From Candidatus Proximibacter danicus (GTDB lineage: Bacteria; Pseudomonadota; Gammaproteobacteria; Burkholderiales; Rhodocyclaceae), in assembly GCA_016710885.1 (NCBI GenBank), contig JADJUC010000002.1, positions 181,972 to 245,971 on the forward strand: a DNA stretch of 64,000 nucleotides, written 5' to 3'. Within the stretch, counting starts at the first letter, position 1. Each line of letters begins with the position of its first letter. The translations under genes and the position numbers were made by a program. Shown piece by piece: positions 8,341 to 31,570 of this stretch. The notes under the pieces were generated by a model. It did not search any database, had not been told where the DNA came from, and was given only the letters and a program-made list of their open reading frames with translations.

Positions 8341-8371
8341 GAATTAAAGACTCCAGGTTCGAATTAAATTG
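8341..8371. repeat. imperfect direct repeat, copy B, flanking the PIN-RHH cassette
   Basis: GAATTAAAGACTCCAGGTTCGAATTAAATTG, the partner of 7497..7527. Confidence 0.5.
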
Positions 8372-8667
8372 CAGCTTACCAACACCAACTGTTTCGACTA
8401 CCAGCAGATGAACGAGCTGCTCGACCCGGCCAACCATCCGCCCGAAGGCAGCCTTGTCGATGCCGGCACCTTCCACACCTTCGTGAACAACTGATCCAGC
8501 TGACCCGAACGCCATAACGCGAAAAACGGCGAAAAAACCCCTGCCAACCTCCGCCAAACCCTTGCCAAAGCTGCAGTTTGCAACGCTGCCAAGGATGCAA
8601 GTTAAGCGTATACTTTTGCACTTTCCCGGCTGTTAGCTGCTGACGCCCATAAGGCACAAAAACATCA

Positions 8668-10968: not shown

Positions 10969-11444
10969 GCGCCGCCAATTTTCAAAACTTCCAGTTGATC
11001 CGCAATCCGTTCGGTCGGCTGGTCTTCACCGGTGCTGACGGTGAAGCGCACGAAGGCGTTGTTCCCGTGCGCGCCTTCCCCATCGGTGCGCCCGACGAAG
11101 GCATTGCCCTGGTTAACAGCGAAGGCCACGAACTGCTGTGGATAGACCGCGTCGAAGATCTGCCGGAAAATGTTGCGGCGCTGGTGCAGGCAGAGCTCGC
11201 CAGCCGCGAGTTCGTACCCGAAATCAAGCGCATCCGCAGCGTCTCCAGCTTCGCCTGCCCAAGCACTTGGGAACTCGATACCGACCGTGGCGACGCCCGG
11301 CTGGTGTTGAAGGGCGAGGAAGACATCCGCCGCCTGGACCGCGAAAAGTTGCTGATCGCCGACACCCACGGCATCCAGTTCCTGGTCCGCGACATCCAGG
11401 CCCTGGATCGCGCCAGCCGCAAGATCCTCGACCGCTTCCTGTAA
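10965..11444 (+). CDS. DUF1854-family protein
   Basis: MSAANFQNFQLIRNPFGRLVFTGADGEAHEGVVPVRAFPI... Its ATG overlaps the ABC stop (ATGA). It appears in the track only as the tail of the out-of-frame 8886..11444 ORF. The family assignment is from memory of DUF1854 proteins encoded next to ABC and cphA genes. Confidence 0.7.
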   Translation: MSAANFQNFQLIRNPFGRLVFTGADGEAHEGVVPVRAFPIGAPDEGIALVNSEGHELLWIDRVEDLPENVAALVQAELASREFVPEIKRIRSVSSFACPSTWELDTDRGDARLVLKGEEDIRRLDREKLLIADTHGIQFLVRDIQALDRASRKILDRFL

Positions 11445-13697: not shown

Positions 13698-13749
13698 GCG
13701 TCGCTGACACGAATTCATCGAACAAAGACCAAGACAGGAATACACGCAA

Positions 13750-16700
13750 ATGGAAGTTTCCCGCACCCGGGCGCTGCGCGGCCCCAACCTGTGGAGCCGA
13801 CATACGGCCATCGAAGCCATCGTCGCCTGTAGCGAAAGCGAGCGCTCGATCACCCAGCTGGCCGGTTTCGAAACCCGCCTGCGCGCACGCTTCCCGGAAA
13901 TCGGCCTGCCGACGACGCTGGAAGGCAAGCTCTTCTCGCTGGCGCATACGCTGGAAGCCGCAGCACTTGGCCTGCAGTCGCGCGCTGGCTGCCCGGTGAC
14001 CTTCAGCCGCACCAGCGAAACGGTCGAAACCGGCACCTATCAGGTGGTGGTCGAATACTCGGAAGAACCGGTCGGCCGGCTGGCTTTCGAACTGGCTGAA
14101 GCGCTGGTTCGCGCCGCGCTAGACGATACGCCTTTTGATCTCGCCGACGCCCTCTTCCGGCTCAAGGACCTCGACGGCGACATCCGGCTCGGCCCCTCGA
14201 CCGGCGCCATCGTGCAGGCCGCCGTCGCCCGCGGCATTCCCTACCGCCGACTGACCGAAGGCAGCCTCGTCCAGCTTGGCTGGGGCAGCCGCCAGCGCCG
14301 CATTCAGGCGGCCGAAACCGACCTCTCCAGCGCCATCGCCGAGTCGATTGCACAGGACAAGGAACTGACCAAGCAGCTGCTGCACGCCGCCGGCGTTGCC
14401 GTGCCGATGGGCCGCCCGGTCAGTGATGCCGATGACGCCTGGGCCGCTGCGCAGGAAATCGGCGGCGCCGTGGTCGTCAAGCCGCAGGACGGCAACCAGG
14501 GCAAGGGCATCACCGTCAACATTACCGGCCGCGAAGAAGTCATGGCCGCCTACGCCGCCGCCCGCGACCACCGCCGCAACGTGCTGGTCGAACGCTATCT
14601 GCCCGGCCACGACTACCGTTTCCTGGTCATCGGCAAGACCCTGATCGCTGCCGCCCGCCGCGAGCCGCCGCAGGTCTTCGGCGACGGCGTGCACACCGTG
14701 CGCCAGCTGGTCGAGCAGGTGAATGCCGACCCGCGCCGTGGCGTTGGTCACGAATCCTCGATGACCAAGATCCGTTTCGACGAAATCGCCCTCGCCCGCC
14801 TCGCCAAGCAGGGCTACAGCGCCGACACCGTGCCGGCCCAGGGCCAGCGCGTCGTGCTGCGCAACAACGCCAACCTGTCCACCGGCGGCTCGGCCACCGA
14901 CGTCACCGACGACGTGCACCCGGAGCTGGCCGCCTGCGCCATCGCCGCCGCACAGACCATCGGCCTCGACATCGCCGGCATCGACGTCGTCTGCGAAACC
15001 GTGCAGCAGCCGCTCGAAGCGCAAGGCGGCGGCATCGTCGAAGTCAACGCCGCGCCCGGCCTGCGCATGCACCTCGCGCCGTCCTTCGGCAAGGGCCGCC
15101 CGGTCGGCGAAGCCATCATTTCGATGATGTACGAAGACCCCACCGATGACGGCCGCATTCCCATCGTCGCCGTCGCCGGCACCAACGGCAAGACCACCAC
15201 CGTGCGCCTGATCGCGCATCTGCTCACGGTCAGCGGCCTGCGCACCGGCTTCACCGGTACCGACGGCGTCTATATCGAACGCACCCGAATCGACACCGGC
15301 GACTGCAGCGGCCCGCGCAGCGCACGCAACGTGCTGCTGCACCCGGACGTCGATGCCGCCGTTTTCGAAACCGCCCGTGGCGGCGTGCTGCGCGAAGGTC
15401 TCGGCTTTGACCGCTGCGATGTGGCGGTGGTCACCAACATCGGCATCGGCGACCACCTCGGCCTCAACTACATCAGCACCGTCGACGATCTGGCCGTGGT
15501 CAAGCGCGTGATCGTCGACAACGTAGCGCCGGAAGGTGCTGCCGTGCTCAACGCGGCCGACCCGATGGTGGTCAAGATGGCCGGCCATTGCCCCGGCTCG
15601 GTGATCTTCTTCGCGCTCGACCGGAGCAACCCGGTCATGTCGCGCCATCGTGCGCTCGGCAAGCGGATGGTCTATGTCGAGAACGGCGCCATCGTCGCGG
15701 CACAGGGCAACACCGAACACCGCGTGCCGCTGGAAGCGATTCCGCTGACGCGTGGCGGCAGCATCGGCTTCCAGGTCGAGAACGCGATGGCCGCCACCGC
15801 CGCCGGCTGGGCGCTCGACCTCGACTGGGAAAGCATCCGCGCCGGCCTCGGCTCCTTCGTTGCCGACGCCACCACCGCCCCCGGCCGCTTCAACCTGTTC
15901 AACTACAAGGGCGCCACGCTGATCGCCGACTACGGCCACAACCCGGATGCCATCCAGGCGCTGGTCAAGGCCATCGAAACCATGCCGGCCAAGCGCCGCT
16001 CGGTGGTCATCAGCGGCGCCGGCGACCGCCGCGACGAAGACATCCGCCAGCAGACGCAGATTCTCGGCGACGCCTTCGACGAAGTGATCCTCTACGAAGA
16101 CGCCTGCACCCGCGGCCGCGACGAAGGTGAAACCATCGGCCTGCTGCGTGCAGGCCTGGCTGGCGCCAAGCGCACCGGCTCGGTCGACGAGATCAAGGGC
16201 GAGTTCGTTGCCATCGATACGGCCCTCGGCCGGCTCGGCTCCGGCGACCTGTGCCTGATCCTCATCGATCAGGTGGAAGTCAGCATGGCTGCACAGGTCG
16301 CGGCATACAGCCGCGGCTGCGCTTCACGGTCGGCAAGCGCAAACAGATGGAGCGCGCCCCAGCTGACAAGCAGGCCGATCAGCAACGGGATGCCGATCAG
16401 TTGCAGCTCGGTGGCCGAAAGTTCGCCGAGGCGCCCTTGCTGCACCGGTACGGCGGTGAACATGCCGAAGGTCCAGAAGAGGCCAAGGGCGCCGAGGGCT
16501 ACCAAGGTGGCCACTGCGCGGGTGATCCATTTTTCCATTCGAGATTCCTGGGGAAGTTTGGCTAATGCGGCCAGCGCGACCAAGGCGCCCGGCCCGGCCT
16601 GTTCAGCCGGCAATGCGCAAACCGGTTTTCTTGAGTATCCGGGTCGAGAAGAGGACGTCGTGGCTGCGGCAGGCCGCGCCCAGCAGACTGCGGATTTCGG

Positions 16701-17169
16701 CAACCTTGGTCAGCACTTCCTCGCGCGAACTGCCGTGAACCATGGCAAAGAGGTTGTACGGCCAGGCCGGCAGTGCACGCGGCCGGTGGTAGCAATGGGT
16801 CACAGAATCAAGGGCGCCGACCTGGCCGCCCAGCGTGTCGACCAGCTCATCCGGCACATCCCATACGCTCATGCCGTTGGCGGTGTAGCCGATGGCATAG
16901 TGGTTGGGCACGGCGCCGATGCGGCGGATCTTGCCGCGCTCCAGCATGGCCTGCATGCGCGCCATCACCACATCCGGAGTAACGCCAAGCTGTTCGGCCA
17001 GCGCATGATACGGCTGAGCCACCAGCGGCAGCCCGGCCTGCGTGGCGACGATCAGGCGTCGGTCCAGATCTTCCGCTTCGTTCGCGTTGTCCATTTCCGC
17101 GTTCATGCCGCGCTCCGGACCGACAGCTTCATTTCGACGAAGTATTCCTTGAGCTTGGGGAAGGGATAA
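13750..17169 (+). CDS. cphA: cyanophycin synthetase; CphA-like part ends near 16290, no in-frame stop until 17169
   Basis: Full ATP-grasp (NANLSTGGSATDVTD) and Mur-ligase (AGTNGKTTT ... GHNPDA ... LILIDQVE) architecture. The last ~290 codons are antisense to the small membrane protein gene, nirH and nirG, and look non-native. Confidence 0.85.
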   Translation: MEVSRTRALRGPNLWSRHTAIEAIVACSESERSITQLAGFETRLRARFPEIGLPTTLEGKLFSLAHTLEAAALGLQSRAGCPVTFSRTSETVETGTYQVVVEYSEEPVGRLAFELAEALVRAALDDTPFDLADALFRLKDLDGDIRLGPSTGAIVQAAVARGIPYRRLTEGSLVQLGWGSRQRRIQAAETDLSSAIAESIAQDKELTKQLLHAAGVAVPMGRPVSDADDAWAAAQEIGGAVVVKPQDGNQGKGITVNITGREEVMAAYAAARDHRRNVLVERYLPGHDYRFLVIGKTLIAAARREPPQVFGDGVHTVRQLVEQVNADPRRGVGHESSMTKIRFDEIALARLAKQGYSADTVPAQGQRVVLRNNANLSTGGSATDVTDDVHPELAACAIAAAQTIGLDIAGIDVVCETVQQPLEAQGGGIVEVNAAPGLRMHLAPSFGKGRPVGEAIISMMYEDPTDDGRIPIVAVAGTNGKTTTVRLIAHLLTVSGLRTGFTGTDGVYIERTRIDTGDCSGPRSARNVLLHPDVDAAVFETARGGVLREGLGFDRCDVAVVTNIGIGDHLGLNYISTVDDLAVVKRVIVDNVAPEGAAVLNAADPMVVKMAGHCPGSVIFFALDRSNPVMSRHRALGKRMVYVENGAIVAAQGNTEHRVPLEAIPLTRGGSIGFQVENAMAATAAGWALDLDWESIRAGLGSFVADATTAPGRFNLFNYKGATLIADYGHNPDAIQALVKAIETMPAKRRSVVISGAGDRRDEDIRQQTQILGDAFDEVILYEDACTRGRDEGETIGLLRAGLAGAKRTGSVDEIKGEFVAIDTALGRLGSGDLCLILIDQVEVSMAAQVAAYSRGCASRSASANRWSAPQLTSRPISNGMPISCSSVAESSPRRPCCTGTAVNMPKVQKRPRAPRATKVATARVIHFSIRDSWGSLANAASATKAPGPACSAGNAQTGFLEYPGREEDVVAAAGRAQQTADFGNLGQHFLARTAVNHGKEVVRPGRQCTRPVVAMGHRIKGADLAAQRVDQLIRHIPYAHAVGGVADGIVVGHGADAADLAALQHGLHARHHHIRSNAKLFGQRMIRLSHQRQPGLRGDDQASVQIFRFVRVVHFRVHAALRTDSFISTKYSLSLGKG
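16269..16538 (-). CDS. small two-TM membrane protein downstream of nirH
   Basis: MEKWITRAVATLVALGALGLFWTFGMF...LQLIGIPLLIGLLVSWGALHLF. AGGAA lies 7 nt before ATG 16538, third codon positions are GC-rich, and the gene starts 64 nt after the nirH stop. Confidence 0.55.
   Translation of the reverse strand: MEKWITRAVATLVALGALGLFWTFGMFTAVPVQQGRLGELSATELQLIGIPLLIGLLVSWGALHLFALADREAQPRLYAATCAAMLTST
16603..17106 (-). CDS. nirH: heme d1 biosynthesis protein NirH (AsnC-like siroheme decarboxylase subunit)
   Basis: Lrp/AsnC-like N-terminus, ...HCYHRPRALPAWPYNLFAMVHG, and an ATGA overlap with nirG. Confidence 0.8.
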   Translation of the reverse strand: MNAEMDNANEAEDLDRRLIVATQAGLPLVAQPYHALAEQLGVTPDVVMARMQAMLERGKIRRIGAVPNHYAIGYTANGMSVWDVPDELVDTLGGQVGALDSVTHCYHRPRALPAWPYNLFAMVHGSSREEVLTKVAEIRSLLGAACRSHDVLFSTRILKKTGLRIAG

Positions 17170-18596: not shown

Positions 18597-19760
18597 TCAA
18601 AAGCCGATGCGGGCGGCGCGGCTGGTGAAGAAGATACCCGAAGGCGCCTGCGCCGCAAACTCGCCGATCTTGTCGAAGCTGGCAGTATCGTAGATCACCA
18701 CCTTGTTGTCGTCACGCGCCGAGAGCCAGACGGCTTCGCCGCGCGGCGTGAATTCCATGTGCAGGATGGCCTTGCCCGGCGACAGGGTCTTCACCACCTT
18801 GCCGGAGAGGGTATCGATAACCTGCACTTCGGAGTAGTCGGGGAAGGCGAAGTTTACCCAGATCTGGCGACCGTCCGGGCGCGCCATGACGAAGACCGGT
18901 TGGCCCTTGACCGGGATGCGGCCGACTTCCTTCCAACTGATGCCATCCACGACCAGCACTTCGTGGCGACCGATCGCCGGCAGGTAGGCCTTGCCCTGCG
19001 CCATCGACCAGCCGCGCAAGTGCGGCATCTTGAACACCGGCAGTTTTTCCTCACCGCGGCCGTAGCCTTCGAGAATCTTCATGGCGCCCTTCTCCGGCTG
19101 CCACAGGTCGAGCAACGCCACGCCGTCCTCGCCGTAGAGACCGGCCATGAAGTAGCGGCCATCCGGCGTCACCAGCCCGTCGTAGGGTTGCTTGCCGGCC
19201 GGAAAGCGCTGCGTCGTCGGCTTTTTCGGGTCCTTGAAATCGGTGACCCAGATCTCGCCGCCTTCAAACAGGGCATAGGCAAACTTGCCGCCCTGTGCAT
19301 CGGCCAGACCGACCACCTTGGAGAACTGGCCCGGAGCGTATTCGGCCGGCACCTCGGAAAGCAGCTCCAAGGTTTCGGCGTCGAAAGCCTTGATACCACC
19401 CGGCGCGTAGTTCTGGGCGACGACGATCCGGCCGTCCTGCGAGATCGAGCCACCAATGGAGTTGCCAGCCTGGATGACGCGCTTGACGATGCGGGCTTCG
19501 AGCAGGTCGACCTTGGTCAGACCGCCGTCGCGACCGAAGATGAAGGCGTAGCGGCCATCGCGGGAATAGACGGTAGAAGCGTGCGAGAGATCGCCGAGTC
19601 CTTCGACGCGGGCATAGGGGGCCTTGGTCGAGGTGTTGATCAGGGTCAGGTGGCCACTGGCGCGCTCGATGACCAGACCGAGGTCACCAGTTCCCCGGAG
19701 CGGCTGGCCGGCACAGGCGGAAAGTAGCAGCACGGAAGCGAGAGCGAGAAATTTGCGCAT
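18597..19760 (-). CDS. nirF: NirF (cytochrome d1-like propeller, heme d1 maturation), lipoprotein signal
   Basis: MRKFLALASVLLLSAC lipobox, followed by a d1-type beta-propeller resembling the C-terminal part of NirS. ATG at 19760. Confidence 0.85.
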   Translation of the reverse strand: MRKFLALASVLLLSACAGQPLRGTGDLGLVIERASGHLTLINTSTKAPYARVEGLGDLSHASTVYSRDGRYAFIFGRDGGLTKVDLLEARIVKRVIQAGNSIGGSISQDGRIVVAQNYAPGGIKAFDAETLELLSEVPAEYAPGQFSKVVGLADAQGGKFAYALFEGGEIWVTDFKDPKKPTTQRFPAGKQPYDGLVTPDGRYFMAGLYGEDGVALLDLWQPEKGAMKILEGYGRGEEKLPVFKMPHLRGWSMAQGKAYLPAIGRHEVLVVDGISWKEVGRIPVKGQPVFVMARPDGRQIWVNFAFPDYSEVQVIDTLSGKVVKTLSPGKAILHMEFTPRGEAVWLSARDDNKVVIYDTASFDKIGEFAAQAPSGIFFTSRAARIGF

Positions 19761-19824
19761 GACGACCCTGTTCAAGTAATGGCGACACAGACGCCAAGAA
19801 TGCCCGTTATGCGTGCAGCGGGGT

Positions 19825-19838: not shown

Positions 19839-20060
19839 AGAAATGTTGGATCGGAGCATCCATTCAGGGCTGCTTCAGCGGTCGGAGCACGCCGCCAAAG
19901 GCTTGCCAAGCAGGCTGTTGCACATGATCGTTGCCGGCAGTCAAGCGAACTTTGACTCAGGTCAAGTTTCACCGCGATTGCAAGCGGCAGAATCGACGCG
20001 GGGTTGGCTTATACTCGCAGCCTCGCACCGCAACGCGCTCCACTCCGTTGGCCAAGCCGA

Positions 20061-20555
20061 ATGACTGAAACCGAAACTCCGCCCCGCCCTGCCGGCCGCA
20101 AGCTCCTCATCGACATGCTGATCCTGCTGGCCCTGATCGCACTCGGGGCTGCTGGCTATGTACTCGCGCCACTGTTGACGCCGCGAACGGACGTCACGCT
20201 GCCGATGTCGAGCTGCGACCTTGGCGCAACGGCCTGCACCATCACCCTGCCGAACGGAGGGCAGGTCGAGGTAGCCATTGCGCCACACCCGATTCCATCG
20301 CTCAAGCCACTCCAGTTGCGGGCCATCGTCAGCGACGCCACGGTGCGCAAGATCGAAATCGATTTCGCCGGTGTCGACATGAAAATGGGATTCAACCGCC
20401 CGCTGCTTGAAAATCTGGGAGATGGGCGCTTCTCGGGACAGGCCAGCCTGCCGGTGTGCATCACGGGGAAAATGCCGTGGGAAGCCACGGTACTCATCGA
20501 GACCGGCAGGACCGTCATCGCCGCGCCTTTCCGCTTTGAGGCGGAAGGTCAGTAG
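20061..20555 (+). CDS. membrane-anchored FixH/YtkA-like hypothetical protein
   Basis: MTETETPPRPAGRK, then one TM helix (LLIDMLILLALIALGAAGYVLA) and a beta-rich domain with DFAGVDMKMGFN. The family call is tentative. Confidence 0.5.
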   Translation: MTETETPPRPAGRKLLIDMLILLALIALGAAGYVLAPLLTPRTDVTLPMSSCDLGATACTITLPNGGQVEVAIAPHPIPSLKPLQLRAIVSDATVRKIEIDFAGVDMKMGFNRPLLENLGDGRFSGQASLPVCITGKMPWEATVLIETGRTVIAAPFRFEAEGQ

Positions 20556-20729: not shown

Positions 20730-21152
20730 CTACTTTTGCTCAGTCACAAAAGCGATCTTCGTCAGCCCTGATTTCTGTGCTGCAGCCAGTACCTCGGTCA
20801 CCCGCTCGTAACGCGTGGCACGGTCGGCGCGGAGATGCAATTCGGGAACGCCACCCGATGCGACGATGGACTGAAAACGTGCCTCAAGACCATGCACCTC
20901 ATTGCGATCCAGCCGCTCACCATCGACGTAAACATCGCCATCGCCGTCAATGAGTACGGATGTGACGCGTGGTGGCTCGTCGAGGCGCGTCGACTCCACC
21001 TTGGGTAAATCAATCGGCACCGCCTGATGAAACAAGGGCGCGGTAATGATGAAAATGACCAACAGTACCAGCATCACATCGACCAACGGCGTGGTATTGA
21101 TCTCGGCCATCGGCTGGGTAACGCCGGGGGTATCGAAGGAACCAAAGGACAT
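20730..21152 (-). CDS. exbD: biopolymer transport protein ExbD/TolR
   Basis: INTTPLVDVMLVLLVIFIITAP is the typical ExbD anchor. Confidence 0.9.
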   Translation of the reverse strand: MSFGSFDTPGVTQPMAEINTTPLVDVMLVLLVIFIITAPLFHQAVPIDLPKVESTRLDEPPRVTSVLIDGDGDVYVDGERLDRNEVHGLEARFQSIVASGGVPELHLRADRATRYERVTEVLAAAQKSGLTKIAFVTEQK

Positions 21153-21161
21153 CGCCGCGCC

Positions 21162-21899
21162 TTACGCCGATTTGGCCGAACGGGCAGCAGCAAGGTCGAC
21201 AAGCTTGTCACCGGGGCGGCCACGCAGACCTGTCGTCAGGTAGGCATGCAGGTCATGCGCAAAACCGTCCATGCGCGCCAGGATCAATCGGTTGCCACGG
21301 GTGAAGGCGTTGTAGGCAAGCACGGCCGGAATGGCGACGAAGAGACCGGCAGCCGTCATGATCAGTGCCTCGCCAACCGGGCCGGCGACCTTGTCGAGCA
21401 CGACCTGTGTCGCGCCGGAAAGGCCGACGAGTGCATGGTAGATACCCCAGACGGTACCGAACAGGCCGATGAAGGGCGCCGTTGAACCCACTGAAGCGAG
21501 AAACGTAAGCCCCGATTCGATTTTCGCCTGCGATTCGACGATCTGGCAGCGCACTGCACGGGTCACGAACTCACTGGCGCTGACTCCTGCGCCAATACCT
21601 CGGGCGGCATGCTGGCGATGAAGCGCTGCGGCATTGGCGCCGGCGATGGCCAACCCGGCCAGCACGCCGGTTTTGTCTTCGATCCGAATGGCTTCAATGG
21701 CGGCCGGCAAGGACTCCGCACCCCAGAAGGCATTCATCGCCCGTGCATGACTATGCCGTGCCTGCCAAAGGCCGCTGATCTTGCCAGCCATGACATACCA
21801 GCTGGCCAGCGACAGACCGAGAAGAAGGATCGCGACAAAGTGCGTCACCATGTCGCCCTGCGCCCAGAATTGCGCCAAGCCCATTTCCATTCTCATCAT
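21162..21899 (-). CDS. exbB: MotA/TolQ/ExbB proton channel protein
   Basis: LASVGSTAPFIGLFGTVWGI...GEALIMTAAGLFVAIPAVLAYN. Confidence 0.9.
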   Translation of the reverse strand: MMRMEMGLAQFWAQGDMVTHFVAILLLGLSLASWYVMAGKISGLWQARHSHARAMNAFWGAESLPAAIEAIRIEDKTGVLAGLAIAGANAAALHRQHAARGIGAGVSASEFVTRAVRCQIVESQAKIESGLTFLASVGSTAPFIGLFGTVWGIYHALVGLSGATQVVLDKVAGPVGEALIMTAAGLFVAIPAVLAYNAFTRGNRLILARMDGFAHDLHAYLTTGLRGRPGDKLVDLAAARSAKSA

Positions 21900-21905
21900 T
21901 GACCC

Positions 21906-22598
21906 TCAATTGCTTAAAGTGAAATTCAGCGGCACCAGCACGGACGCCTCTATCGGTTCGTTGCCCTGCCGCGCCGACACAAAACGCCAGCGTTCGACTG
22001 CCGCCCGGGCCGCCTCGTCAAGACGCGGGAAGCCGCTCGACTTGCTGACCTCGATGCTCAGCGGCATCCCCTGCGTACTGACGCGCACACGCAGCACCAC
22101 TTTGCCTTCCTCACCGAGCCGGCGGGACATCGGTGGATAGGCCGGCTTCGGATTCTGCAGATAATCAGCGTCAAAGCGCGCGGCGGTTATCGGCGCCGGG
22201 GCCTGGATGGACGGCAACGCGACCGGTTCGGGCTGCGGAGTAACGGAAAAACTGGCTGGTGCATCATCGCGCTTCGAAGCAGTCATGACCGGCGGCGGTG
22301 TCTGCACCTTTTTGGCGGCGGGCTGTTGCGGAACTGGCTTGGGCGACTCAATCCTGGGCGGCTTGGCCACCTCGGGCTCGATCATGCGCACGGCCAACGC
22401 GCGGATCGGTGCGATGACTTCCGGGCGGATGGCGGCATAGACCAGCAACGCCAGAATCACGACATGCACTGCAATCACCAGCACGCCGGAAAGACCTCGC
22501 TGAAAGAACCCGGCCCGGCCGTCGACAACCGGCGCGAAGAACTCGACCGGTGCGGACTCGGAGCGGTGAGGTGCTGTCACAGCGTTTCGCGGACCCAT
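21906..22598 (-). CDS. tonB: energy transducer TonB
   Basis: One TM helix, a Pro-rich spacer (KPPRIESPKPVPQQPAAKKVQTPPP) and the C-terminal motif YPPMSRRLGEEGKVVLRVRV. Confidence 0.9.
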   Translation of the reverse strand: MGPRNAVTAPHRSESAPVEFFAPVVDGRAGFFQRGLSGVLVIAVHVVILALLVYAAIRPEVIAPIRALAVRMIEPEVAKPPRIESPKPVPQQPAAKKVQTPPPVMTASKRDDAPASFSVTPQPEPVALPSIQAPAPITAARFDADYLQNPKPAYPPMSRRLGEEGKVVLRVRVSTQGMPLSIEVSKSSGFPRLDEAARAAVERWRFVSARQGNEPIEASVLVPLNFTLSN

Positions 22599-23047
22599 CG
22601 CTGGAGGCGTTCTTCCGGCACGATGCCTGACACTGCCTCGACCTTATGGCTGCGATCATAGAGATGTGTGCGCGGCAACTCGCCGTACCATCGACGATCG
22701 ATCTCGAAACGCAGGCGCTCGGGCATCGGATCGGCGAAAACCCATTGCTCGACCTTGCCAAGACCGTAGGATTTTGCCAGTTGGGCGGTTTGCGGCGCAT
22801 CGTCCGGCGTATCGGCGGCAACCAGCACGACATCAAGCTTCGGATGACGACGTTTCAGCTCACCGAGCGTCTTCAGTTCGGCTGGGCAGTGCGTGCAACC
22901 GACCGACCAGAACGCAAGCACGAAGGGCTTGCCTTGCCGGGCTGCCTGAATCTGCGCCAGGCTGCCGGCAACGAACGGACGAACCACCGTGTCGGCCATC
23001 GCTGCAGGTGCCAACAACACCAGCAACATCGTTAGCAGGCTGCGCAT
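22577..23047 (-). CDS. secreted TlpA-like thioredoxin-fold protein
   Basis: Signal peptide MRSLLTMLLVLLAPAAMA and active-site-like FWSVGCTHCP. Its ATG overlaps the stop of the upstream propeller gene. Confidence 0.8.
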   Translation of the reverse strand: MRSLLTMLLVLLAPAAMADTVVRPFVAGSLAQIQAARQGKPFVLAFWSVGCTHCPAELKTLGELKRRHPKLDVVLVAADTPDDAPQTAQLAKSYGLGKVEQWVFADPMPERLRFEIDRRWYGELPRTHLYDRSHKVEAVSGIVPEERLQRWVRETL

Positions 23048-24285
23048 CAGGGCTGTACCCCAAGATCGAAGATGCGTACCGCGCCATCGGCATACCACGC
23101 CAGCAAGGGTTTACCAGCCCCCGCCACGAAGAGTGGCAAATCAGCCGCATTGCCCGCAGTTGCAAGCGCCGTCGGCGCCGACCACTTCTCGCCACGATCA
23201 TCGGAGTGCTGTGTCATCACGCGATACTGCTTGCCGTCAAACTCTCGCCACGCCAGCCAGGCACGCCCATCACGCGCAAACACGGTCGGATTGCCGGCCT
23301 GCGTATCGGGGTTACCGAGGGCCAGCGGCGGACTCATCCTTTCACCATCAGCGTGACGGTAGTAGATGCCCGGGCCTTTCGGGCTGCCAGTGAACCAGAC
23401 GAGATGCCGGCGACCACTTTCGTCGATGGCCAGATCGCCACCATGGTGCGGGCAGGCAGCAATTTTCCAGTCGTCCTCGCTGGCCCGTTGCATTTTTGCC
23501 CCTGGAACCAACGGGGCAACCGCAAAGTCACGGATGTTGTCCCCGAAGACGTGACGCCACTGCGCCTGTGCCTCACCGTTCGGCGCAAAGGCGAGGCCGA
23601 TGCGGCAGCATTCGCAGGAGTGGTCGGCGAGCATGGTGTTCGCCGAAAAAGTTTCGCCGCGGTTCTCGGAGACGACGTAGAAAATACTGGAGCCGAGGTG
23701 CTTATTTCCTGCCTTGGCCTGGGCTGTCTTCTCGCGTGAATCCAGCCAAACCAGTGCCATCCGCCCCTGGCTATTCATCGCCAGGGTCGGGAAGCTGTGG
23801 CCGATCTCTTCGCGGTCGCTATTCACGATGACCGGCGACGAGAAGCTGCGCCCACCATCGACCGAGCGCGCAAAGCGGACATGGCCGGTATGCAGCTTCG
23901 GCAAGGCCTGCGCCCAGGTCACGGCGACCATGCCGCCGCCAGCCACCACCTTCGGACGGTTCTGGCCATCGGCCAGGATCGCTTCCGGCTCAGGGTTGAC
24001 CTTCACATCGCCGGCAAAAGTCTTGCCGCCATCGTCGGAACGACTGACCCAGACATGCCCCTTTTCCATCCGTGCAAGCCACAGCCGGCCGGTTTCATCG
24101 GCGGCAACCGACACTGATGAACCGACAGATGCCGTCAGGCGATCCTGCCAGTGCTTGCTCATGGCGTCACGCGCCGCATTGTTGGCGTGCTGTTCCTGAG
24201 CCGTCAGCGGCAACACGGCCAGCGAAAAAACGACAGCCAGCAGCGGCCGCATGCGGCTACGCAGGAAGGTGCTCATGATCACCAT
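23047..24285 (-). CDS. secreted BNR/Asp-box beta-propeller protein (sialidase-like fold, function unknown)
   Basis: Signal peptide, four Asp-boxes (SRSDDGGKTF, ARSVDGGRSF, VSENRGETF, QHSDDRGEKW), and the Cys/His motifs HSCECC and ACPHHGG. An alternative ATG lies at 24276. Confidence 0.75.
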   Translation of the reverse strand: MVIMSTFLRSRMRPLLAVVFSLAVLPLTAQEQHANNAARDAMSKHWQDRLTASVGSSVSVAADETGRLWLARMEKGHVWVSRSDDGGKTFAGDVKVNPEPEAILADGQNRPKVVAGGGMVAVTWAQALPKLHTGHVRFARSVDGGRSFSSPVIVNSDREEIGHSFPTLAMNSQGRMALVWLDSREKTAQAKAGNKHLGSSIFYVVSENRGETFSANTMLADHSCECCRIGLAFAPNGEAQAQWRHVFGDNIRDFAVAPLVPGAKMQRASEDDWKIAACPHHGGDLAIDESGRRHLVWFTGSPKGPGIYYRHADGERMSPPLALGNPDTQAGNPTVFARDGRAWLAWREFDGKQYRVMTQHSDDRGEKWSAPTALATAGNAADLPLFVAGAGKPLLAWYADGAVRIFDLGVQP

Positions 24286-26435
24286 TTCGCCTGCACACCG
24301 ACAACGAATGCACGCGGCAAACCGGTAGAGTAGGTCGGCGCCGTACCATCCATACCCACCGTTTCTGCATACTGTTTGTCAAACAGGTTGTTGATGCTGC
24401 CGAAAACTTCCCAACGTTTTTCGATGGGATAGTTGGCGCGGAGGTTAACTAGATTGTGCCCGCTGTATTGCTTGGTATTGCCCTGATCATGGTAGTAATT
24501 GCCAAGCTTGAACCATTCAAGCTGGAAGCGGCCGCCGTTCATGCAACCCGGCGCATAGGTCAGGCGTGTGTTGGCGATCAGGCGCGGAGCGGCTTCCATC
24601 TCGTTGCCGCTGTAGTCAGCGGTACCCGACACCTTCCACTGTTCGTACGAATGTTTGGCATACGAAAGGCTGGCATCGATACGCCAGGCGTCGGCAATCG
24701 GCGCGCCAAGGCCGAATTCGACGCCCTTGTGCAAGGTCTCTCCGGCATTCACCACCGTACGCTGGTTGGTCGAAGGGTCGGTGTAGCTGACGATGTCGTC
24801 CTTCTTCTTCATGTAATAAACGGACACTTCGTAGTTCGCTTTGCCTGCAAGTCCTCGCAAACCCATTTCGTAGTTATCGACGATGACGGGCTTCAGATCG
24901 AGCAGCGACTCTGCGGCACGTTGTGCGCGAATCGCCGTGCTCTCGCGACTGCCGCGGAATACCTGGCCCTCAGAAGGCGTACGGAAAGAGTTGCTGTAGT
25001 TGGCAAAACCGCTGAGCACCTTACTGAACTCGTAGGTCGCACCAAATTTCGGACCCCAGTGGCTGTAATCAACCTTGGCACTGGCTACGTGACCATAAAA
25101 ACCGTTACCAGGGAAGCCGCCTGCAACTCCCTGTGAAGCGCCTGCAGCGCCACCCCGGAAGTTATTGTCGTAGTCGTACTGCATGTCGTCATAACGCAAA
25201 CCTGCAATAAGACGCAGTTTTTCGGTCGGCGATATTTCCCCATGTATGTAAGGAGAAATGCTGCGAAATGTCACGTCGTAGTCATATATCTGCACCGGTA
25301 CGACACCCTTGTTGTAGGTGTAGTTTCTCCCCAACACATTGTTACCGGTGCTGGTGACGCGAATCGAATCCTCGTCGCGCGACCCCGGGCTGATGTCGAA
25401 GTCGAGACCGACAATAACTCGCGCCCGCATCGGTTCAAAATCATGACGGTACTTGCTGAGGAAACCGAAGGACTGGTTCTTCGTGGTGTACTGGACCGGA
25501 TCGTAGCTGACCATCCAGCTCGGAAGGATTTCCATCGAATTGTCGCGCACATACGGCGTGATCGAGATCAACGAATTCCCCAGTTCCTTCTCGTAGGAAG
25601 TCGACAGGCGGAAGGCATCGACCTTGCGGTATGAAAAACCGATGTTGTTGGTTTTCCGTGAGGAATCGTCGTCATACTGGCTCTTGGTCAGGCTGCCGAC
25701 ATGGTTCTGGTCGACCTGCGAGAACGAGAATACGGTTTTCAGCGTGGCGTCACTGCCGAGCGCTCGGTCCCAGCGAAAATTTCCGGTTTGCCGATCGTAC
25801 CCGGCATGATCCTGATATCCATTGTTTGTCGTCAGGTTGAGACTGGCGCGCCAAGCGTCATCCCCCGAGGAATTGCCACCGCTCATCATCAGGCGCCCCC
25901 AGCCGAAGGAGCCGGCTTCGGCGCTTGTCTCAAGTTCAGCCTCACGCGGCGGCGTACGCGTCAGTACGTTGACCGTGCCACCGATGGCGTCAGAGCCATA
26001 AAGGGCACTGCCGGGCCCCTTGGATATCTCCATGCCGCCGGACTGCGGGACATTGATTTCGTACATCGCGTTATGGTTGAAGAAGCCGGTCGAACGCGTC
26101 GGAATGCCGTCCTCCAGATAGAGATAGACGGCGCCCGTTGTCAGCGGCTGGCGAATAGCTGTGGAATGCCCTTCTCCGGAAAGGTTGCTGACCCACACTC
26201 CGGGAACCTGATTCATCACCTGACTGGGGTGCGATGGTCGCTGCTGACGAATGCGTTCGCCACTGACCGTGTCGACGGTGTTCGGCGTTTCGGTGATCAG
26301 TTGCGCCTCGCGCGTACCGGTGACGGTAATCTCCCCCAAGGAAGCCGCAGGACTCTCAGCATAAGACAGATGTGAGACGGGGAAGGTGAGCGCCAGAGCG
26401 ACGACAACCGGCTTGAGGTGTAGGTTCGTTTGCAT
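24279..26435 (-). CDS. TonB-dependent outer-membrane receptor
   Basis: Start moved to MQTNLHLKPVVVALALTF (ATG 26435). Plug region ITVTGTRE...GPGSALYGSDAIGGTVNV, a long barrel and a terminal ...VVGVQAKW. Confidence 0.9.
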   Translation of the reverse strand: MQTNLHLKPVVVALALTFPVSHLSYAESPAASLGEITVTGTREAQLITETPNTVDTVSGERIRQQRPSHPSQVMNQVPGVWVSNLSGEGHSTAIRQPLTTGAVYLYLEDGIPTRSTGFFNHNAMYEINVPQSGGMEISKGPGSALYGSDAIGGTVNVLTRTPPREAELETSAEAGSFGWGRLMMSGGNSSGDDAWRASLNLTTNNGYQDHAGYDRQTGNFRWDRALGSDATLKTVFSFSQVDQNHVGSLTKSQYDDDSSRKTNNIGFSYRKVDAFRLSTSYEKELGNSLISITPYVRDNSMEILPSWMVSYDPVQYTTKNQSFGFLSKYRHDFEPMRARVIVGLDFDISPGSRDEDSIRVTSTGNNVLGRNYTYNKGVVPVQIYDYDVTFRSISPYIHGEISPTEKLRLIAGLRYDDMQYDYDNNFRGGAAGASQGVAGGFPGNGFYGHVASAKVDYSHWGPKFGATYEFSKVLSGFANYSNSFRTPSEGQVFRGSRESTAIRAQRAAESLLDLKPVIVDNYEMGLRGLAGKANYEVSVYYMKKKDDIVSYTDPSTNQRTVVNAGETLHKGVEFGLGAPIADAWRIDASLSYAKHSYEQWKVSGTADYSGNEMEAAPRLIANTRLTYAPGCMNGGRFQLEWFKLGNYYHDQGNTKQYSGHNLVNLRANYPIEKRWEVFGSINNLFDKQYAETVGMDGTAPTYSTGLPRAFVVGVQAKW

Positions 26436-26562
26436 TAATCGGGTCCGTAAATAAGAATTCACTACTAAATCAGTGAACACAGGCGGAGCCGATAGTAACG
26501 AAAACGATGAGGCTGGCCGTGCGACATATCGCCGCAGAAGAAGGCTACAGGCCCTCAAAAAA

Positions 26563-26576
26563 TTGATGGCTGTCAA
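26563..26576. promoter_or_regulatory. FNR/DNR-type box upstream of the TonB-dependent receptor operon
   Basis: TTGAT-GGCT-GTCAA matches 9/10 of TTGAT-N4-ATCAA. It lies between the csp terminator and the receptor ATG, about 130 nt upstream of the ATG. Confidence 0.5.
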
Positions 26577-26611: not shown

Positions 26612-26641
26612 TGAAACAAAAAAGCCCGCCATCGGCGGGCT
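26612..26641 (-). terminator. rho-independent terminator after the csp-like gene
   Basis: Minus strand reads AGCCCGCC-GAT-GGCGGGCT followed by TTTTTGTTT. Confidence 0.75.
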
Positions 26642-26660: not shown

Positions 26661-27095
26661 TCAGGCAGCGAGTTTTTTGCACTCTTTCAAGCACGCCGCG
26701 CAGGCTTCGGCGCAGTCTTTGCACTGGGAATGTTTTTTCTCGTGCTTGCGACACTCTTTCTCGCAGTCTTCACAGATTTCGCCGGCCACTTTGGCGTATC
26801 TGGCAAGAAACTTCGATTCCGAGGTAGCCAAGCGTTGCAGGGCAGCGCAAACCGCCAGCAGTTCATTTACGCTCTTGGCACAGGCGGCCATTTCCTTGTC
26901 GCCATTGCCAAGCAATTCGAAGCAGTGATTCAGGCAGGCCTCACCGGTGCGGACACAATCGCCGGAAGTGCCGATCAGCCCCTGATACTTGGCACCGTGG
27001 TGGTGGTCGTGGTCGTGATTGGCAGCTACCGCATCCACAGCCAGCGCAGCCATGGCCAATGCCCCGACACTCCCAAGCATTTCGCGTCTATGCAT
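26661..27095 (-). CDS. Tat-exported Cys-rich four-helix-bundle copper-binding protein (Csp1/DUF326-like)
   Basis: Twin-arginine leader MHRREMLGSVGALAMAALA, a His-rich NHDHDHHHG stretch, and 13 Cys in the mature part arranged in the repeating helical pattern (...GEACLNHCFELL...CEDCEKECRKH...CKDCAEACAACLKECKK). Confidence 0.8.
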   Translation of the reverse strand: MHRREMLGSVGALAMAALAVDAVAANHDHDHHHGAKYQGLIGTSGDCVRTGEACLNHCFELLGNGDKEMAACAKSVNELLAVCAALQRLATSESKFLARYAKVAGEICEDCEKECRKHEKKHSQCKDCAEACAACLKECKKLAA

Positions 27096-27828: not shown

Positions 27829-27855
27829 AAAAAAAACGGGGGCCGAAGCCCCCGT
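27829..27855 (-). terminator. rho-independent terminator after nirS
   Basis: Minus strand reads ACGGGGGC-TTCG-GCCCCCGT followed by T8. Confidence 0.8.
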
Positions 27856-27879
27856 TCTGTAACGCTACGCTGCAGACGA

Positions 27880-29544
27880 TTAGTAAATGTCGTGCATGGT
27901 GTTGTAGACGTTGAACTTGCCGGTCGGCGTCACGAGACGCTTGTCCTTGATGACGGTCTTGACCTTGCGGGTCTTGTCATCAACCACAACGATCGCCGAG
28001 GCTTCGGTCTTGTTACCGGTCCAGACGGAGAACCAGATCTCGTCGCCCTTCTCGTTGTACTCACCGTGCACCACGCGCTGGATACCCTTGGTCTTGCCCA
28101 GATCGGCAGCAGCAGCCAGGTCGAGGATTTCCGGCTTGGCGTCGCCGCCGAGTTCGGAAATCTTGTACACCGTGACGGAACCAGCCAGCTTGGCATCCGG
28201 GTTCAGCGGAGCGTCAGCCCAGAGGTTCTCGGACTTCGGGTGCGTCTTGACGAACAGCGAGTTGGCGCCGTGGTTCTTCAACTCCTGAACAACCTTCCAA
28301 GCATTGTCCTTGTTGTTTTCCGGATCGGTACCAATGATGCTGATCACGTCGGAACCCAAGTGCGAAGTTGCCCAGACCGGACCAAACTTCGGATGCTTGA
28401 AGTTGGCGCCACGACCCGGGTGCGGGATCTTGGCGGTATTGACCAGCGCCGCCAGCTTGCCTTCCTGGGTATCAACCACTGCCACCTTGTTGGAGGCGTT
28501 GGCAGCCACCAGGAAGTAACGCTTGGTCGAATCCCAGCCGCCGTCGTGCAGGAACTTGGCGGAGTTAACCGTGATTTCCTTCAGGTTGTTCAGGTCCGAG
28601 TAGTCAACCAGCTTGATCATGCCGGTTTCCTTGATGTTGATGACCCACTCAGGCTTGTGCTCGGAAGCGACGATCGAGGCAACGCGAGGTTCCGGATGGT
28701 AGTTGCCATCAACGGTGTTACCACGGGTCGACACGTTCTTCAGCGGCTCAAGCGTCAGGCCGTCGAGGATGGTGTACTGCGGCGGCCAGTAGGAACCGAC
28801 CACGGCGTACTTGTCTTCGTAACCCTTGAACTTGGAGGTCTCGATCGAACGGGCTTCGAAGCCAGCCTTCAGCGTAGCAACGGTCGTCGGCATTTCGGTC
28901 CACATGTCGATCAGGTCATAGCGGCCATCGCGGCCGATAACGTGAACGTAGCGACCGGAGGTCGACAGACGCGAGATATGAACAGCGTAGCCAGTCTTGA
29001 TGACAGCCCAGATCTTCTTGGTGTCGCCGTCAATCAGCGCAACTTCACCCGAGTCACGCAGGGTGACGGAGAAGATGTTGTTCAGGTTGACGTTGTTCAT
29101 CTGCTTGGTCGGACGCTTGTCGACCGGGATCAGCAACTTCCAGCTGCCCTTGATGTCAGCAAGGCTCCACTCCGGGGGCGCTTCGGCCGGCATCTGGAGG
29201 TAGGTGGCCATGTTGGCGATTTCCTTCTTCGACAGGATGTCGTCGAAGTTGACCATGCCGCCTTCGGTACCGTAGGCAAGCACCTTCTCAAGACGAGCCT
29301 GGCCGAGCTTGGTGGTATTGGCCGGCTCGAGATTCTTGCCGGTTGCGCCCTTGCGCAGCATGCCGTGGCAGCCAGCGCAACGCTCGAAATAGACCTTGCC
29401 TGTAGCGGCCTTATCTTCTGCCGACAGCGTCGGAGCAGCAGGGGCTGCGGAAGCAGCTTGTTTCTTGGCCGGGGCAGCATATGCAGTAGCTACAGCCAGC
29501 GGCAGTGCAGCCAGCATCAGGGTGTTACGTACGAGTTTCTTCAT
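27880..29544 (-). CDS. nirS: cytochrome cd1 nitrite reductase
   Basis: Signal peptide, N-terminal heme c domain (CAGCHG) and a long d1 beta-propeller ending ...FNVYNTMHDIY. Confidence 0.95.
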   Translation of the reverse strand: MKKLVRNTLMLAALPLAVATAYAAPAKKQAASAAPAAPTLSAEDKAATGKVYFERCAGCHGMLRKGATGKNLEPANTTKLGQARLEKVLAYGTEGGMVNFDDILSKKEIANMATYLQMPAEAPPEWSLADIKGSWKLLIPVDKRPTKQMNNVNLNNIFSVTLRDSGEVALIDGDTKKIWAVIKTGYAVHISRLSTSGRYVHVIGRDGRYDLIDMWTEMPTTVATLKAGFEARSIETSKFKGYEDKYAVVGSYWPPQYTILDGLTLEPLKNVSTRGNTVDGNYHPEPRVASIVASEHKPEWVINIKETGMIKLVDYSDLNNLKEITVNSAKFLHDGGWDSTKRYFLVAANASNKVAVVDTQEGKLAALVNTAKIPHPGRGANFKHPKFGPVWATSHLGSDVISIIGTDPENNKDNAWKVVQELKNHGANSLFVKTHPKSENLWADAPLNPDAKLAGSVTVYKISELGGDAKPEILDLAAAADLGKTKGIQRVVHGEYNEKGDEIWFSVWTGNKTEASAIVVVDDKTRKVKTVIKDKRLVTPTGKFNVYNTMHDIY

Positions 29545-29636: not shown

Positions 29637-29650
29637 TTGACCCAAATCAA
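29637..29650. promoter_or_regulatory. FNR/DNR/NnrR-type box in the nirS-nirE divergent intergenic region
   Basis: TTGAC-CCAA-ATCAA matches 9/10 of consensus. Its centre is ~100 nt upstream of the nirS ATG and ~110 nt upstream of the cobA/nirE ATG. Confidence 0.65.
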
Positions 29651-31485: not shown

Positions 31486-31570
31486 TGGTGCCGAGAGAGG
31501 GACTCGAACCCTCACGCCTTTCGGCGGCGGATTTTGAATCCGCTGCGTCTACCGATTCCGCCATCTCGGC
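31486..31570 (-). tRNA. tRNA-Leu (anticodon CAA)
   Basis: Manual fold of the reverse complement GCCGAGATGGCGGAATCGGTAGACGCAGCGGATTCAAAATCCGCCGCCGAAAGGCGTGAGGGTTCGAGTCCCTCTCTCGGCACCA. The acceptor stem is GCCGAGA/TCTCGGC, with a long variable arm, GGTTCGAGTCC T-loop, anticodon loop TTCAAAA and encoded CCA. Confidence 0.9.

Follow-up and report, generated by a model that had tools for sequence, protein, structure and literature searches.

How Gram-negative bacteria acquire copper is poorly understood. The described routes are OprC/NosA, methanobactin uptake (MbnT) and, since 2026, CrtA. OprC and NosA are TonB-dependent importers of copper across the outer membrane; they are induced anaerobically and have historically been tied to nitrous oxide (N2O) reductase (PMC8610252). 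The copper site of OprC, made up of a CxxxM and an HxM motif, has been defined structurally (PMC8610252). CrtA belongs to the CruR-CrtA-CrpH copper acquisition operon of Bordetella pertussis (PMC9426467, PMC12914433, PMC13038864). Its recently described family is considered to import chelated copper (PMC12914433) and is marked by conserved residues Y130, W265, E337, Q356, H358 and R395; the next gene encodes a PepSY_TM protein (CrpH) in more than 75% of the loci, and cruR comes first in more than 40% of them. The PepSY_TM partner, which the CrtA and OprC systems have in common, is a membrane protein that has been proposed to be a copper reductase. The subject of this article is a six-gene TonB-dependent module in a 64,000-nucleotide (nt) stretch of DNA from Candidatus Proximibacter danicus (contig JADJUC010000002.1; the whole stretch is referred to below as the window). 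The evidence leans, if not heavily, towards its being a TonB-dependent copper acquisition operon that is switched on at low oxygen and serves periplasmic and membrane copper enzymes, those of denitrification steps included.

The six genes are co-directional on the minus strand (Table 1) and encode a TonB-dependent receptor, a secreted beta-propeller, a secreted thioredoxin-fold protein and a dedicated TonB, ExbB and ExbD. All six had been listed in a first-pass annotation made from the letters of the window, and open reading frames (ORFs) and Pfam matches find each of them in its place. The genes overlap by 7, 1 or 22 nt or are otherwise separated by gaps of 6-9 nt, and a strong terminator lies upstream, which argues for a single operon with its own promoter. 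The credible start of the receptor is the ATG at 26435, which provides it with a signal peptide and a TonB box; position 26576, the end coordinate in the first-pass annotation, is a TTG inside the FNR-type box that is referred to below.

Relatives of the propeller number more than 1000 in a database clustered at 90%, and of 1.84 billion 50%-clusters, 982 have a representative that matches a propeller profile at E <= 1e-30. At least 567 species have it (counted in a scan of one genome per species), mainly in Nitrosomonadales, Rhodocyclales, Gallionellales, Methylophilales and Sulfuricella, with some Gammaproteobacteria; the hosts are mostly chemolithoautotrophs and methylotrophs. Neighbourhoods were compared in the 80 best loci, one representative genome each (smaller denominators are given where they apply; L numbers denote loci). 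A thioredoxin homologue lies within 500 nt downstream of the propeller in 64 of 76 loci, and a TonB-dependent receptor is directly adjacent in at least 50 of 65. The receptors beside the propeller are of at least three to four divergent types, with 22%-67% identity to the receptor of the window. Propeller and thioredoxin have also been joined into one polypeptide many times independently (P0092, P0106, P0123, P0135, P0146, P0158, P0190, P0250): judged by length, such fusions make up about 20 of the top 150 representatives, and the six that were read by sequence carry both sets of motifs. Adjacency of the pair, repeated fusion and the variety of the receptors thus identify propeller plus thioredoxin, working with a TonB-dependent receptor, as the predicted functional core. 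The private TonB-ExbB-ExbD energiser, which the first-pass annotation had counted as part of the module, is there in the window; elsewhere ExbB and ExbD are found downstream in 18 of 56 loci, about a third (a lower bound, from tblastn). Linkage of receptor, propeller and thioredoxin to each other is widespread, and it is only their linkage to nir genes that proves to be confined to close relatives.

The four Asp-boxes of the propeller are at residues 83, 141, 206 and 361, and its only four cysteines lie in the HSCECC and ACPHHG motifs; its sequence confirms the earlier description of a secreted four-Asp-box protein with HSCECC and ACPHHGG motifs. C224, C226, C227, C278, P279, H280, H281 and G282 are invariant in 20 aligned diverse propellers, together with many arginines, aspartates, glutamates, tyrosines and tryptophans. 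The CxCC motif (C224-E-C226-C227) is retained in all seven of the further, more distant propellers, in which CPH is also kept. (Some distant propellers carry an extra N-terminal cysteine pair, C-x7-10-C.) A CxCC motif ligates the tetranuclear (Cu4) cluster of the periplasmic protein CopG, which contributes to anaerobic copper resistance (PMC7558416). The motif of CopG is thus present in the propeller, without the thioredoxin-like fold and the two adjacent methionines that go with it in CopG: here it is situated in a propeller loop, and its flanks (HSCECCRIG) contain no methionine.

The AlphaFold model of the protein is a confident propeller fold (predicted local distance difference test score 84.8), and with its four Asp-boxes it agrees with the six-bladed Asp-box propellers of sialidases (glycoside hydrolase family 33). 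A glycoside hydrolase or lyase of the sialidase type, in a module for TonB-dependent uptake of glycans or acidic sugars, would account for these features, for the Pfam BNR_2/BNR matches and for the source annotations of relatives ('sialidase family protein', 'glycoside hydrolase', 'exo-alpha-sialidase'), and the many invariant Arg, Asp, Glu and Tyr residues would suit it. We nevertheless consider this very improbable. The propeller profile makes only marginal matches to sialidase sequences in the PDB (E ~1e-3, in Asp-box regions only), and a Foldseek search of the PDB returns generic sialidase, lectin and lyase propellers (glycoside hydrolases and polysaccharide lyases at the top) with template modelling (TM) scores of 0.43-0.61 and no specific match. 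What defines the family is invariance of four cysteines and a histidine, and its obligatory partner is a CxxC thioredoxin to which it is often fused. No sugar transporter or catabolic gene recurs near the examined loci, the hosts live mostly by chemolithoautotrophy or methylotrophy, and the regulatory elements are linked to redox or copper.

The thioredoxin-fold partner carries a signal peptide, and its one CTHC is part of WSVGCTHC, in keeping with the secreted WSVGCTHCP protein of the first-pass annotation. Among 35 homologues, which share the signal peptide, the tryptophan, the serine and both cysteines are invariant, in the pattern W-S-x-x-C-x-(H/Y/N/P)-C. Exported proteins of the TlpA/ResA/DsbE group have a thioredoxin fold with WxxxCxxC, as this one has, and there are weak PDB matches to ResA, DsbF and TlpA; against the NCBIfam models of that group it scores only 17-20 bits, with cut-offs at 123-230. 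Periplasmic TlpA reduces copper-site cysteines before they are metallated (PMC7558416). Some loci have extended modules (L057:7624-18700; L033:5620-7357; L050; L015:12047-15232), in which the additional genes encode another TonB-dependent receptor, a periplasmic protein with weak similarity to DUF4198, a polyferredoxin of the NapH/MauN kind and a DsbD_2 membrane protein of the CcdA type; the last two hint at an electron supply line to the periplasmic thioredoxin.

The receptor falls below every curated NCBIfam receptor cut-off: 160.7 bits against 223.5 for siderophores, 125.9 against 316.85 for heme, 112.8 against 599.7 for B12 (TIGR01779) and 122.8 against 1200 for the pyrroloquinoline quinone (PQQ) receptor PqqU (NF041535). 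The leader of the module contains no riboswitch and has no Rfam match, cobalamin included, and the best Fur and Zur box matches in 39 upstream regions are no better than those in shuffled sequence. Siderophore, heme, B12 and PQQ receptor identities were rejected on these grounds, and the earlier statement that this is not a siderophore, heme or B12 locus stands. The copper model for OprC/NosA (TIGR01778) is also missed, at 33.1 bits against 472.45, and the CxxxM (plug) plus HxM (barrel) copper site of OprC is lacking. The receptor has one cysteine, which is not conserved; 21 orthologues share no cysteine, one methionine, eight histidines and many arginines. That one methionine aside, this is the pattern of CrtA (no conserved Cys or Met, conserved His). 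The gene order is different from that of CrtA loci: propeller and then thioredoxin follow the receptor in the position of PepSY_TM (CrpH), and cruR, which is absent from the window, heads the homologous module in L085, L075 and L072. A 732-residue PDB entry, 9rvq ('TonB-dependent receptor'), may be CrtA, as we presume from its length; the window receptor matches it weakly (54 bits, C-terminus only) and the Ralstonia module receptor makes no match at E <= 1e-8. Because its partner is not PepSY_TM, cruR is lacking and the sole candidate PDB match is weak, the receptor of the window is not placeable in the CrtA family.

The proposal of copper as a cargo, which the first-pass annotation had put forward as inference only, now has four independent supports: OprC-like receptors, Csp1, PCuAC and nosZ as neighbours, and CruR-headed versions of the module in Burkholderiales. 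OprC-like receptors, for which OprC is the sole PDB match, occur in 14 of the 80 loci, in several orders and in variable arrangements. In their alignment C115, M119, H314 and M316, the residues of the CxxxM-HxM site, are nearly invariant, and CxxxM is present in 15 of 17 cluster members. The 'csp' gene of the first-pass annotation does encode a copper storage protein of the Csp1 family, with a twin-arginine translocation (Tat) signal (N-terminus MHRREMLG...) and 159.6 bits against a TIGR04401 cut-off of 100. Csp1 adjoins the module in the window and in relatives of it, and it does so in loci of the Gallionella/Sideroxydans type as well; besides the window, at least six loci have it in all (L019, L029, L030, L051, L078, L084). 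In the relative with 86% propeller identity nirS lies to one side of the module and a divergent arrangement to the other, the genes for a 164-residue protein and a PCuAC-family chaperone being transcribed away from nosZ-nosD.

CruR of B. pertussis is a nascent peptide that senses copper and terminates transcription of the downstream receptor operon; homologues of CruR head copper-related operons (PMC9426467), and an independent fitness study also linked DUF2946 to a copper receptor. On the megaplasmid of Ralstonia solanacearum an operon encodes, in succession, a DUF2946 protein with CXXC and RAPP motifs, a TonB-dependent receptor, an 'exo-alpha-sialidase' with CECC and CPHHG, and a thioredoxin with WALDCSYC. 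The module of Ralstonia edaphi likewise begins with a DUF2946 gene, and so does that of Keguizhuia, in which the leader is followed by the full set of six. The DUF2946 leaders in Ralstonia and Keguizhuia are CruR. 'AhpC_TSA genes' are listed for CruR operons in the 2022 CruR paper, which takes them to be concerned with peroxide detoxification (PMC9426467); they may be the module thioredoxin, which gives weak AhpC-TSA matches.

The most conserved predicted regulatory element of the module is not the FNR-type box of the first-pass annotation but a 17-bp palindrome, first noticed during Fur-box scoring and absent from that annotation, which matches RegA/RegR motifs. With at most one mismatch to the family consensus, the palindrome is found 65 times in 1.3 Mb of loci and not at all in shuffled sequence; the degenerate form TGCGRCR-N3-YGYCGCA gives 104 hits against 5. 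The degenerate palindrome lies no more than 3.3 kb upstream of the propeller in 58 of the 80 loci, and many of the remaining loci are on contigs that end early. In the window and in other loci it is placed 22-23 nt upstream of a -10-like hexamer, which centres it near -43. The window copy aligns with TGCGGCGTTATGCCGCA and TGCGGCGAAATGCCGCA in close relatives, the half-sites having changed symmetrically. Its case is made by such conservation across genomes, the window copy alone not being above chance: a scan confined to the window gives 10 matches at three or fewer mismatches against 5.1 expected, which is not significant. The published RegR and RegA motifs are GNGRCRTTNNGNCGC and SSGNVRDNHYSNCSS (quoted in PMC5506826). 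The family consensus, GCGACAATTTGTCGC, fits the former at 14-15 of 15 positions and the latter at 15 of 15.

RegB/RegA-type regulons include denitrification and cbb3 oxidase genes. The genes that lie behind the palindrome are those of module receptors (29), propellers without an intervening receptor (11), OprC-like receptors (5), regB-like kinases (3) and Csp1 (1); examples of sites are L004:7587, L019:2903, L078:2924 and 5624, and L082:14816. In the 86% relative (L082) the nosZ promoter has the same composite as the module, its palindrome coming about 44 nt after an FNR-type box, and Ralstonia has both a G/C variant of the palindrome and cruR. Six loci (L006, L039, L062, L064, L074, L078) have regBA-like genes adjoining the module; the window has none. 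The adjoining regulator scores best as ActR/PrrA/RegA (194 bits against an equivalog cut-off of 250) and the kinase as ActS/PrrB/RegB (233 against 350); since both are below their equivalog cut-offs, the pair may be a specialised paralogue. Several orders share the palindrome in front of the module, of OprC-like receptor genes, of Csp1 and of regB-like genes, and L082 has it before nosZ as well, which suggests an undescribed regulon.

The palindrome also marks some unusual arrangements. In Nitrosomonas eutropha and in a Nitrosospira genome there are two propeller paralogues in one locus with a palindrome before each (L038:3815-4852 and 10001-11236; L044:6841-7749 and 8272-9186); in the Nitrosospira locus a receptor of about 870 residues comes after the propeller, and no thioredoxin gene was detected there. 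Csp1 and the module are separated in the relative with 66% propeller identity (L084:2553-7436) by inserted genes for three PEP-CTERM proteins and one more TonB-dependent receptor, and a palindrome lies just upstream of the first of these genes (L084:2413).

Instead of uptake, propeller and thioredoxin could serve the detoxification or buffering of periplasmic copper, oxidising or sequestering Cu(I) under anoxia in the manner of CopG. The CxCC motif, the Csp1 storage protein next door and the CTHC/CxYC active site, which resembles that of DsbA-type proteins, speak for this. (The CPHC active site of DsbA is an oxidising one.) The tight operon linkage to an importer and its energiser speaks against it, as do co-regulation with OprC-like importers and the lack of enrichment of CopR, CusR and CueR boxes over shuffles in the 39 upstream regions (NsrR consensus matches are not enriched either). 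In addition, copper represses CruR-headed operons and does not induce them (PMC9426467). We think a detoxifying function distinctly unlikely, and copper uptake remains the reading that we prefer.

Another possibility is that the import is of some other nutrient needed at low oxygen, such as a chelate of another thiophilic metal (Ni, Co, Zn or Fe) or a redox cofactor (PQQ), the copper genes in the vicinity being clustered with the module under common redox regulators. YncD/PqqU are the best solved relatives of the receptor, the predicted regulators both sense redox state and not metal, copper families are not among the top neighbour families, and some of the extended modules carry the NapH-like ferredoxin, DsbD_2 and the weakly DUF4198-like protein (E = 0.0014). 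DUF4198 is a family linked to Ni/Co uptake. Against these points must be set the copper-specific leader CruR at the head of the module in Ralstonia and Keguizhuia (PMC9426467), the operator shared with OprC-like CxxxM-HxM receptors and Csp1, the lack of Fur and Zur boxes and of a B12 riboswitch, and a PqqU model that is missed tenfold. A non-copper cargo seems to us unlikely, if less so than detoxification.

The FNR/DNR-type box upstream of the receptor is real, a 9/10 match as the first-pass annotation had it, with its centre 134 nt before the ATG. The window contains three copies of TTGAYN4RTCAA where 0.14 would be expected (none of 100 shuffles reaches three), and all three sites lie in promoter regions: those of nirS, the module and nirF. 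The position of the box is kept in the relatives with 86% (L082, TTGATGATCGTCAA) and 66% (L084, TTGATGTTCGTCAA) propeller identity, with different spacer bases. Rarity together with conservation makes the box more than a chance match, and in this lineage it is predicted to tie the module to the nir promoters. There is no sigma-70 consensus promoter in the upstream region of the module and, in particular, no -35 consensus, so that the promoter is probably activator-dependent. No Crp/FNR-family regulator turned up in a scan of ten window ORFs, which took in only a minority of those outside the nir region. Azonexus-type genomes (L018:2318-2331, L022:7780-7793; also L011, L025 and L027) have a perfect TTGAT-N4-ATCAA that does not precede the promoter but is situated in the receptor leader, about 70 nt past the palindrome and with about 15 nt left to the ATG. 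A box so placed suggests repression, or else a second promoter, and not class I/II activation; thus, FNR-type input is not uniform across lineages.

The first-pass annotation regarded the module as embedded in the nir regulon. This is so in the clade of the window: a 99%-identical metagenome-assembled genome (MAG) has the identical layout, and the 86% and 66% relatives keep the nir embedding. Among the 80 representative genomes nirS is near the module in just one, of Azospira, and nir embedding is, on present genomes, a feature of the window's own clade. A nir-specific accessory function, in which the module would import or mature something that only cytochrome cd1 nitrite reductase needs (heme d1 or a precursor), or supply an assembly factor, would agree with its location between nirS-nirC and nirF-DL-G, with the FNR-type boxes in common and with the persistence of this layout down to 66% identity and in the Azospira genome. 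It is hard to credit for a family that is common in Nitrosomonas, Nitrosospira, Nitrotoga, Gallionella, Methylophilus and Ralstonia, whose fetched loci contain no nirS, and the 86% relative has nosZ, not nirF, downstream of the module. Of the readings discussed here we give this one the least credence.

Several observations weigh against copper acquisition as the function of the module. In the window there is no metal-sensing element (no cruR, no CopR or CueR box), and both of the predicted regulators would sense redox state or oxygen and not copper. The window palindrome has two mismatches and is not significant by itself. The receptor fails the OprC model, and its nearest solved relatives, YncD/PqqU (101 bits), represent a PQQ importer. 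The fold search with the propeller yielded generic propellers at TM ~0.6, and the second histidine of CPHH is not invariant, some distant propellers having CPHQ. Copper families are absent from the 25 most frequent in a Pfam census of 143 small neighbouring ORFs, a diverse set with no dominant accessory family beyond DsbD_2 and Crp-type and RegA-type regulators; thus, the copper signal comes from a minority of loci. The copper assignment is, by its nature, constructed from gene context, shared operators and analogy of motifs.

With copper acquisition as the working model, the module might operate as follows. The receptor, driven by its private TonB-ExbB-ExbD, would import copper bound to a small ligand and not as the free ion: like CrtA, it is without thiolate or thioether ligands, and a copper-ligand complex is its probable substrate. 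The secreted propeller would then receive or release the metal in the periplasm, at a thiolate/imidazole site composed of the invariant CxCC and CPH. The secreted CxxC thioredoxin would either keep the propeller cysteines in the redox state that is needed or supply electrons for reduction of Cu(II) to Cu(I). Propeller and thioredoxin stand where the CrtA and OprC systems have PepSY_TM, from which we infer that the propeller handles copper and that the thioredoxin services its cysteines. Copper would then pass to stores and chaperones such as Csp1 and PCuAC. Transcription would proceed from an activator-dependent promoter whose palindrome, of the RegA/PrrA type, is centred at about -43; this lineage has, at about -84, a box of the FNR/DNR type such as nirS and nirF also have. 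Our confidence in this particular mechanism for the propeller is lower than in the overall reading. A bolder version can be stated, which we put forward as a speculation that we would not expect to hold in full: that the propeller is a new class of periplasmic copper protein which, with the thioredoxin, strips copper reductively from imported chelates and holds a Cu(I)-thiolate cluster, replacing the PepSY_TM reductase, and that a RegB/RegA-type system is master regulator of an unrecognised copper regulon (the module, OprC-like receptors, Csp1) across Betaproteobacteria and some Gammaproteobacteria, linking the supply of copper with the redox state of respiration.

The features of the locus are collected in Table 1.

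Table 1. The module, its regulatory sites and its flanking genes (positions within the window)
Feature	Position	Strand	Remarks
exbD	20730-21152	-	ExbD, Pfam PF02472, 99 bits
exbB	21162-21899	-	MotA_ExbB, Pfam PF01618, 107 bits
Dedicated tonB	21906-22598	-	Pfam TonB_C, 76 bits
Secreted thioredoxin-fold protein, 156 amino acids	22577-23047	-	Weak Pfam AhpC-TSA/Thioredoxin_2/Redoxin matches; active site W-S-x-x-C-T-H-C
Secreted BNR/Asp-box beta-propeller, 412 amino acids	23047-24285	-	Pfam BNR_2/BNR; C224-x-C226-C227, C278-P-H280
TonB-dependent receptor, 718 amino acids	24279-26435	-	Pfam Plug + TonB_dep_Rec_b-barrel, 165 bits; signal peptide, TonB box
-10-like hexamer TACTAT	26492-26497	-	22 nt downstream of palindrome; block conserved in relatives
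RegA/RegR-type palindrome TGCGGCGATATGTCGCA	26520-26536	-	12/14 to family consensus TGCGACA-N3-TGTCGCA; centre at about -43
FNR/DNR-type box TTGATGGCTGTCAA (TTGACAGCCATCAA on coding strand)	26563-26576	-	About -84 relative to inferred transcription start (predicted near 26485)
Intrinsic terminator after Csp1	26623-26641	-	8-bp stem, 7 G-C pairs, then T run; separates Csp1 from module promoter
Csp1-family Tat-exported four-helix-bundle copper storage protein	26661-27095	-	Last gene of cupredoxin-nirC unit
nirS, cytochrome cd1 nitrite reductase (context gene)	27880-29544	-	Own terminator 27833-27858
FNR-type box upstream of nirS	29637-29650	.	
Single-pass membrane protein, 164 amino acids, convergent	20061-20555	+	Family not assigned; between exbD and nirF
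FNR-type box between nirF and divergent 164-residue gene (upstream of nirF)	19952-19965	.	
nirF, heme d1 biosynthesis (context gene)	18597-19775	-	

As for the position of the module between nirS-cupredoxin-nirC-csp and nirFDLGH, the flanks are as the first-pass annotation had described them (nirS, cupredoxin, cytochrome c NirC and Csp1 on one side, nirF, nirDL and nirG on the other), except that an extra plus-strand gene for a 164-residue protein intervenes before nirF. This protein has no match in Pfam or NCBIfam. Its homologues (L082:14192-14683, L015:18663-19046) are both preceded by the palindrome, and the window copy by an FNR-type box; in L082 the gene is paired with that of the PCuAC-family chaperone, divergent from nosZ. 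The Csp1 protein of the window has a His-rich NHDHDHHHG straight after its Tat signal, and its gene ends at a strong terminator. By tblastn, the window has no RegBA, OprC-like, PCuAC, nosZ, CcdA or NapH-like genes, only weak generic response-regulator matches. Two adjacent cyanophycin-synthetase-like genes lie beyond nirG/H (11524-17169), and the rest of the window has housekeeping genes (SecD, monomeric isocitrate dehydrogenase), several GGDEF/EAL proteins and a tRNA (31489-31570). In the 99%-identical MAG (L081:4921-6406) nirS is called in two pieces (434 + 64 residues) and a methylase gene in two fragments; these are likely to be assembly or frameshift errors, the nirS of the window being one intact ORF of 554 residues.

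The first-pass annotation knew of no described function for this set of partners, and full-text searches have found no paper on the propeller-thioredoxin-TonB combination, nor any account of the propeller family, of the thioredoxin that partners it or of the common RegA-type operator. There are several reasons for interest in them. Copper supply limits N2O reductase and thus affects emissions of the greenhouse gas N2O; it also limits ammonia monooxygenase, NirK and heme-copper oxidases. Hosts of the module include nitrifiers, iron and sulfur oxidisers, methylotrophs, denitrifying Rhodocyclales and the plant pathogen Ralstonia solanacearum. If the module is what we take it, with somewhat more confidence than doubt, to be, a TonB-dependent copper acquisition system with new periplasmic components and a new regulatory connection, then copper uptake gains two periplasmic players, a Cys-rich propeller and a dedicated thioredoxin, as well as a testable regulatory link from respiratory redox sensing (RegBA, FNR) to copper supply, and Ralstonia offers a genetically tractable host.

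How, then, does the module compare with systems that are already known? YncD (PqqU) of Escherichia coli is the best solved relative of its receptor, at ~101 bits only, and the E. coli receptor gene yncD adjoins the gene for a periplasmic beta-propeller, YncE. YncE is, however, of another propeller family, without the cysteine motifs; there is no thioredoxin partner, and the PqqU cut-off is missed. The module thioredoxin is comparable with TlpA in its action on ScoI and CoxB (PMC7558416) as a periplasmic thioredoxin-fold CxxC protein that would service the cysteines of a copper-handling protein; unlike TlpA it is soluble and secreted, has a CTHC/CxYC site and is below the TlpA/ResA/DsbE cut-offs. 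The propeller shares with CopG the CxCC that is a copper-cluster ligand there, in a beta-propeller instead of a thioredoxin fold and without adjacent methionines. OprC-like genes are recurrent neighbours of the module with the same operator, but the module receptor is without the CxxxM-HxM site, and OprC is paired with a PepSY-type membrane protein where the module has propeller and thioredoxin.

With regard to regulation, the closest counterpart is RegB/RegA (PrrBA, ActSR, RegSR, RoxSR): the module operator fits the RegR/RegA motifs, and the adjoining regBA-like genes carry the operator themselves. No report was found in the literature of a RegA-type operator before TonB-dependent receptors, OprC-like genes or Csp1. 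Of the described systems, CruR-CrtA-CrpH and OprC/NosA come nearest to the module. Compared with CruR-CrtA-CrpH the partner is different, a secreted Cys-rich BNR propeller plus a CxxC thioredoxin in place of a PepSY_TM heme protein, and in the window, where cruR is lacking, control appears to be RegA-type plus FNR-type. The receptor, like CrtA, is without conserved cysteines (one methionine is conserved) but has conserved histidines. The operon partner would act in copper reduction on the periplasmic side, as has been proposed for CrpH; TonB/ExbBD genes are sometimes included; PCuAC or Sco is sometimes nearby; and there is a link to respiratory copper enzymes. Finally, in Ralstonia and Keguizhuia a DUF2946 gene of the CruR type heads the module itself.

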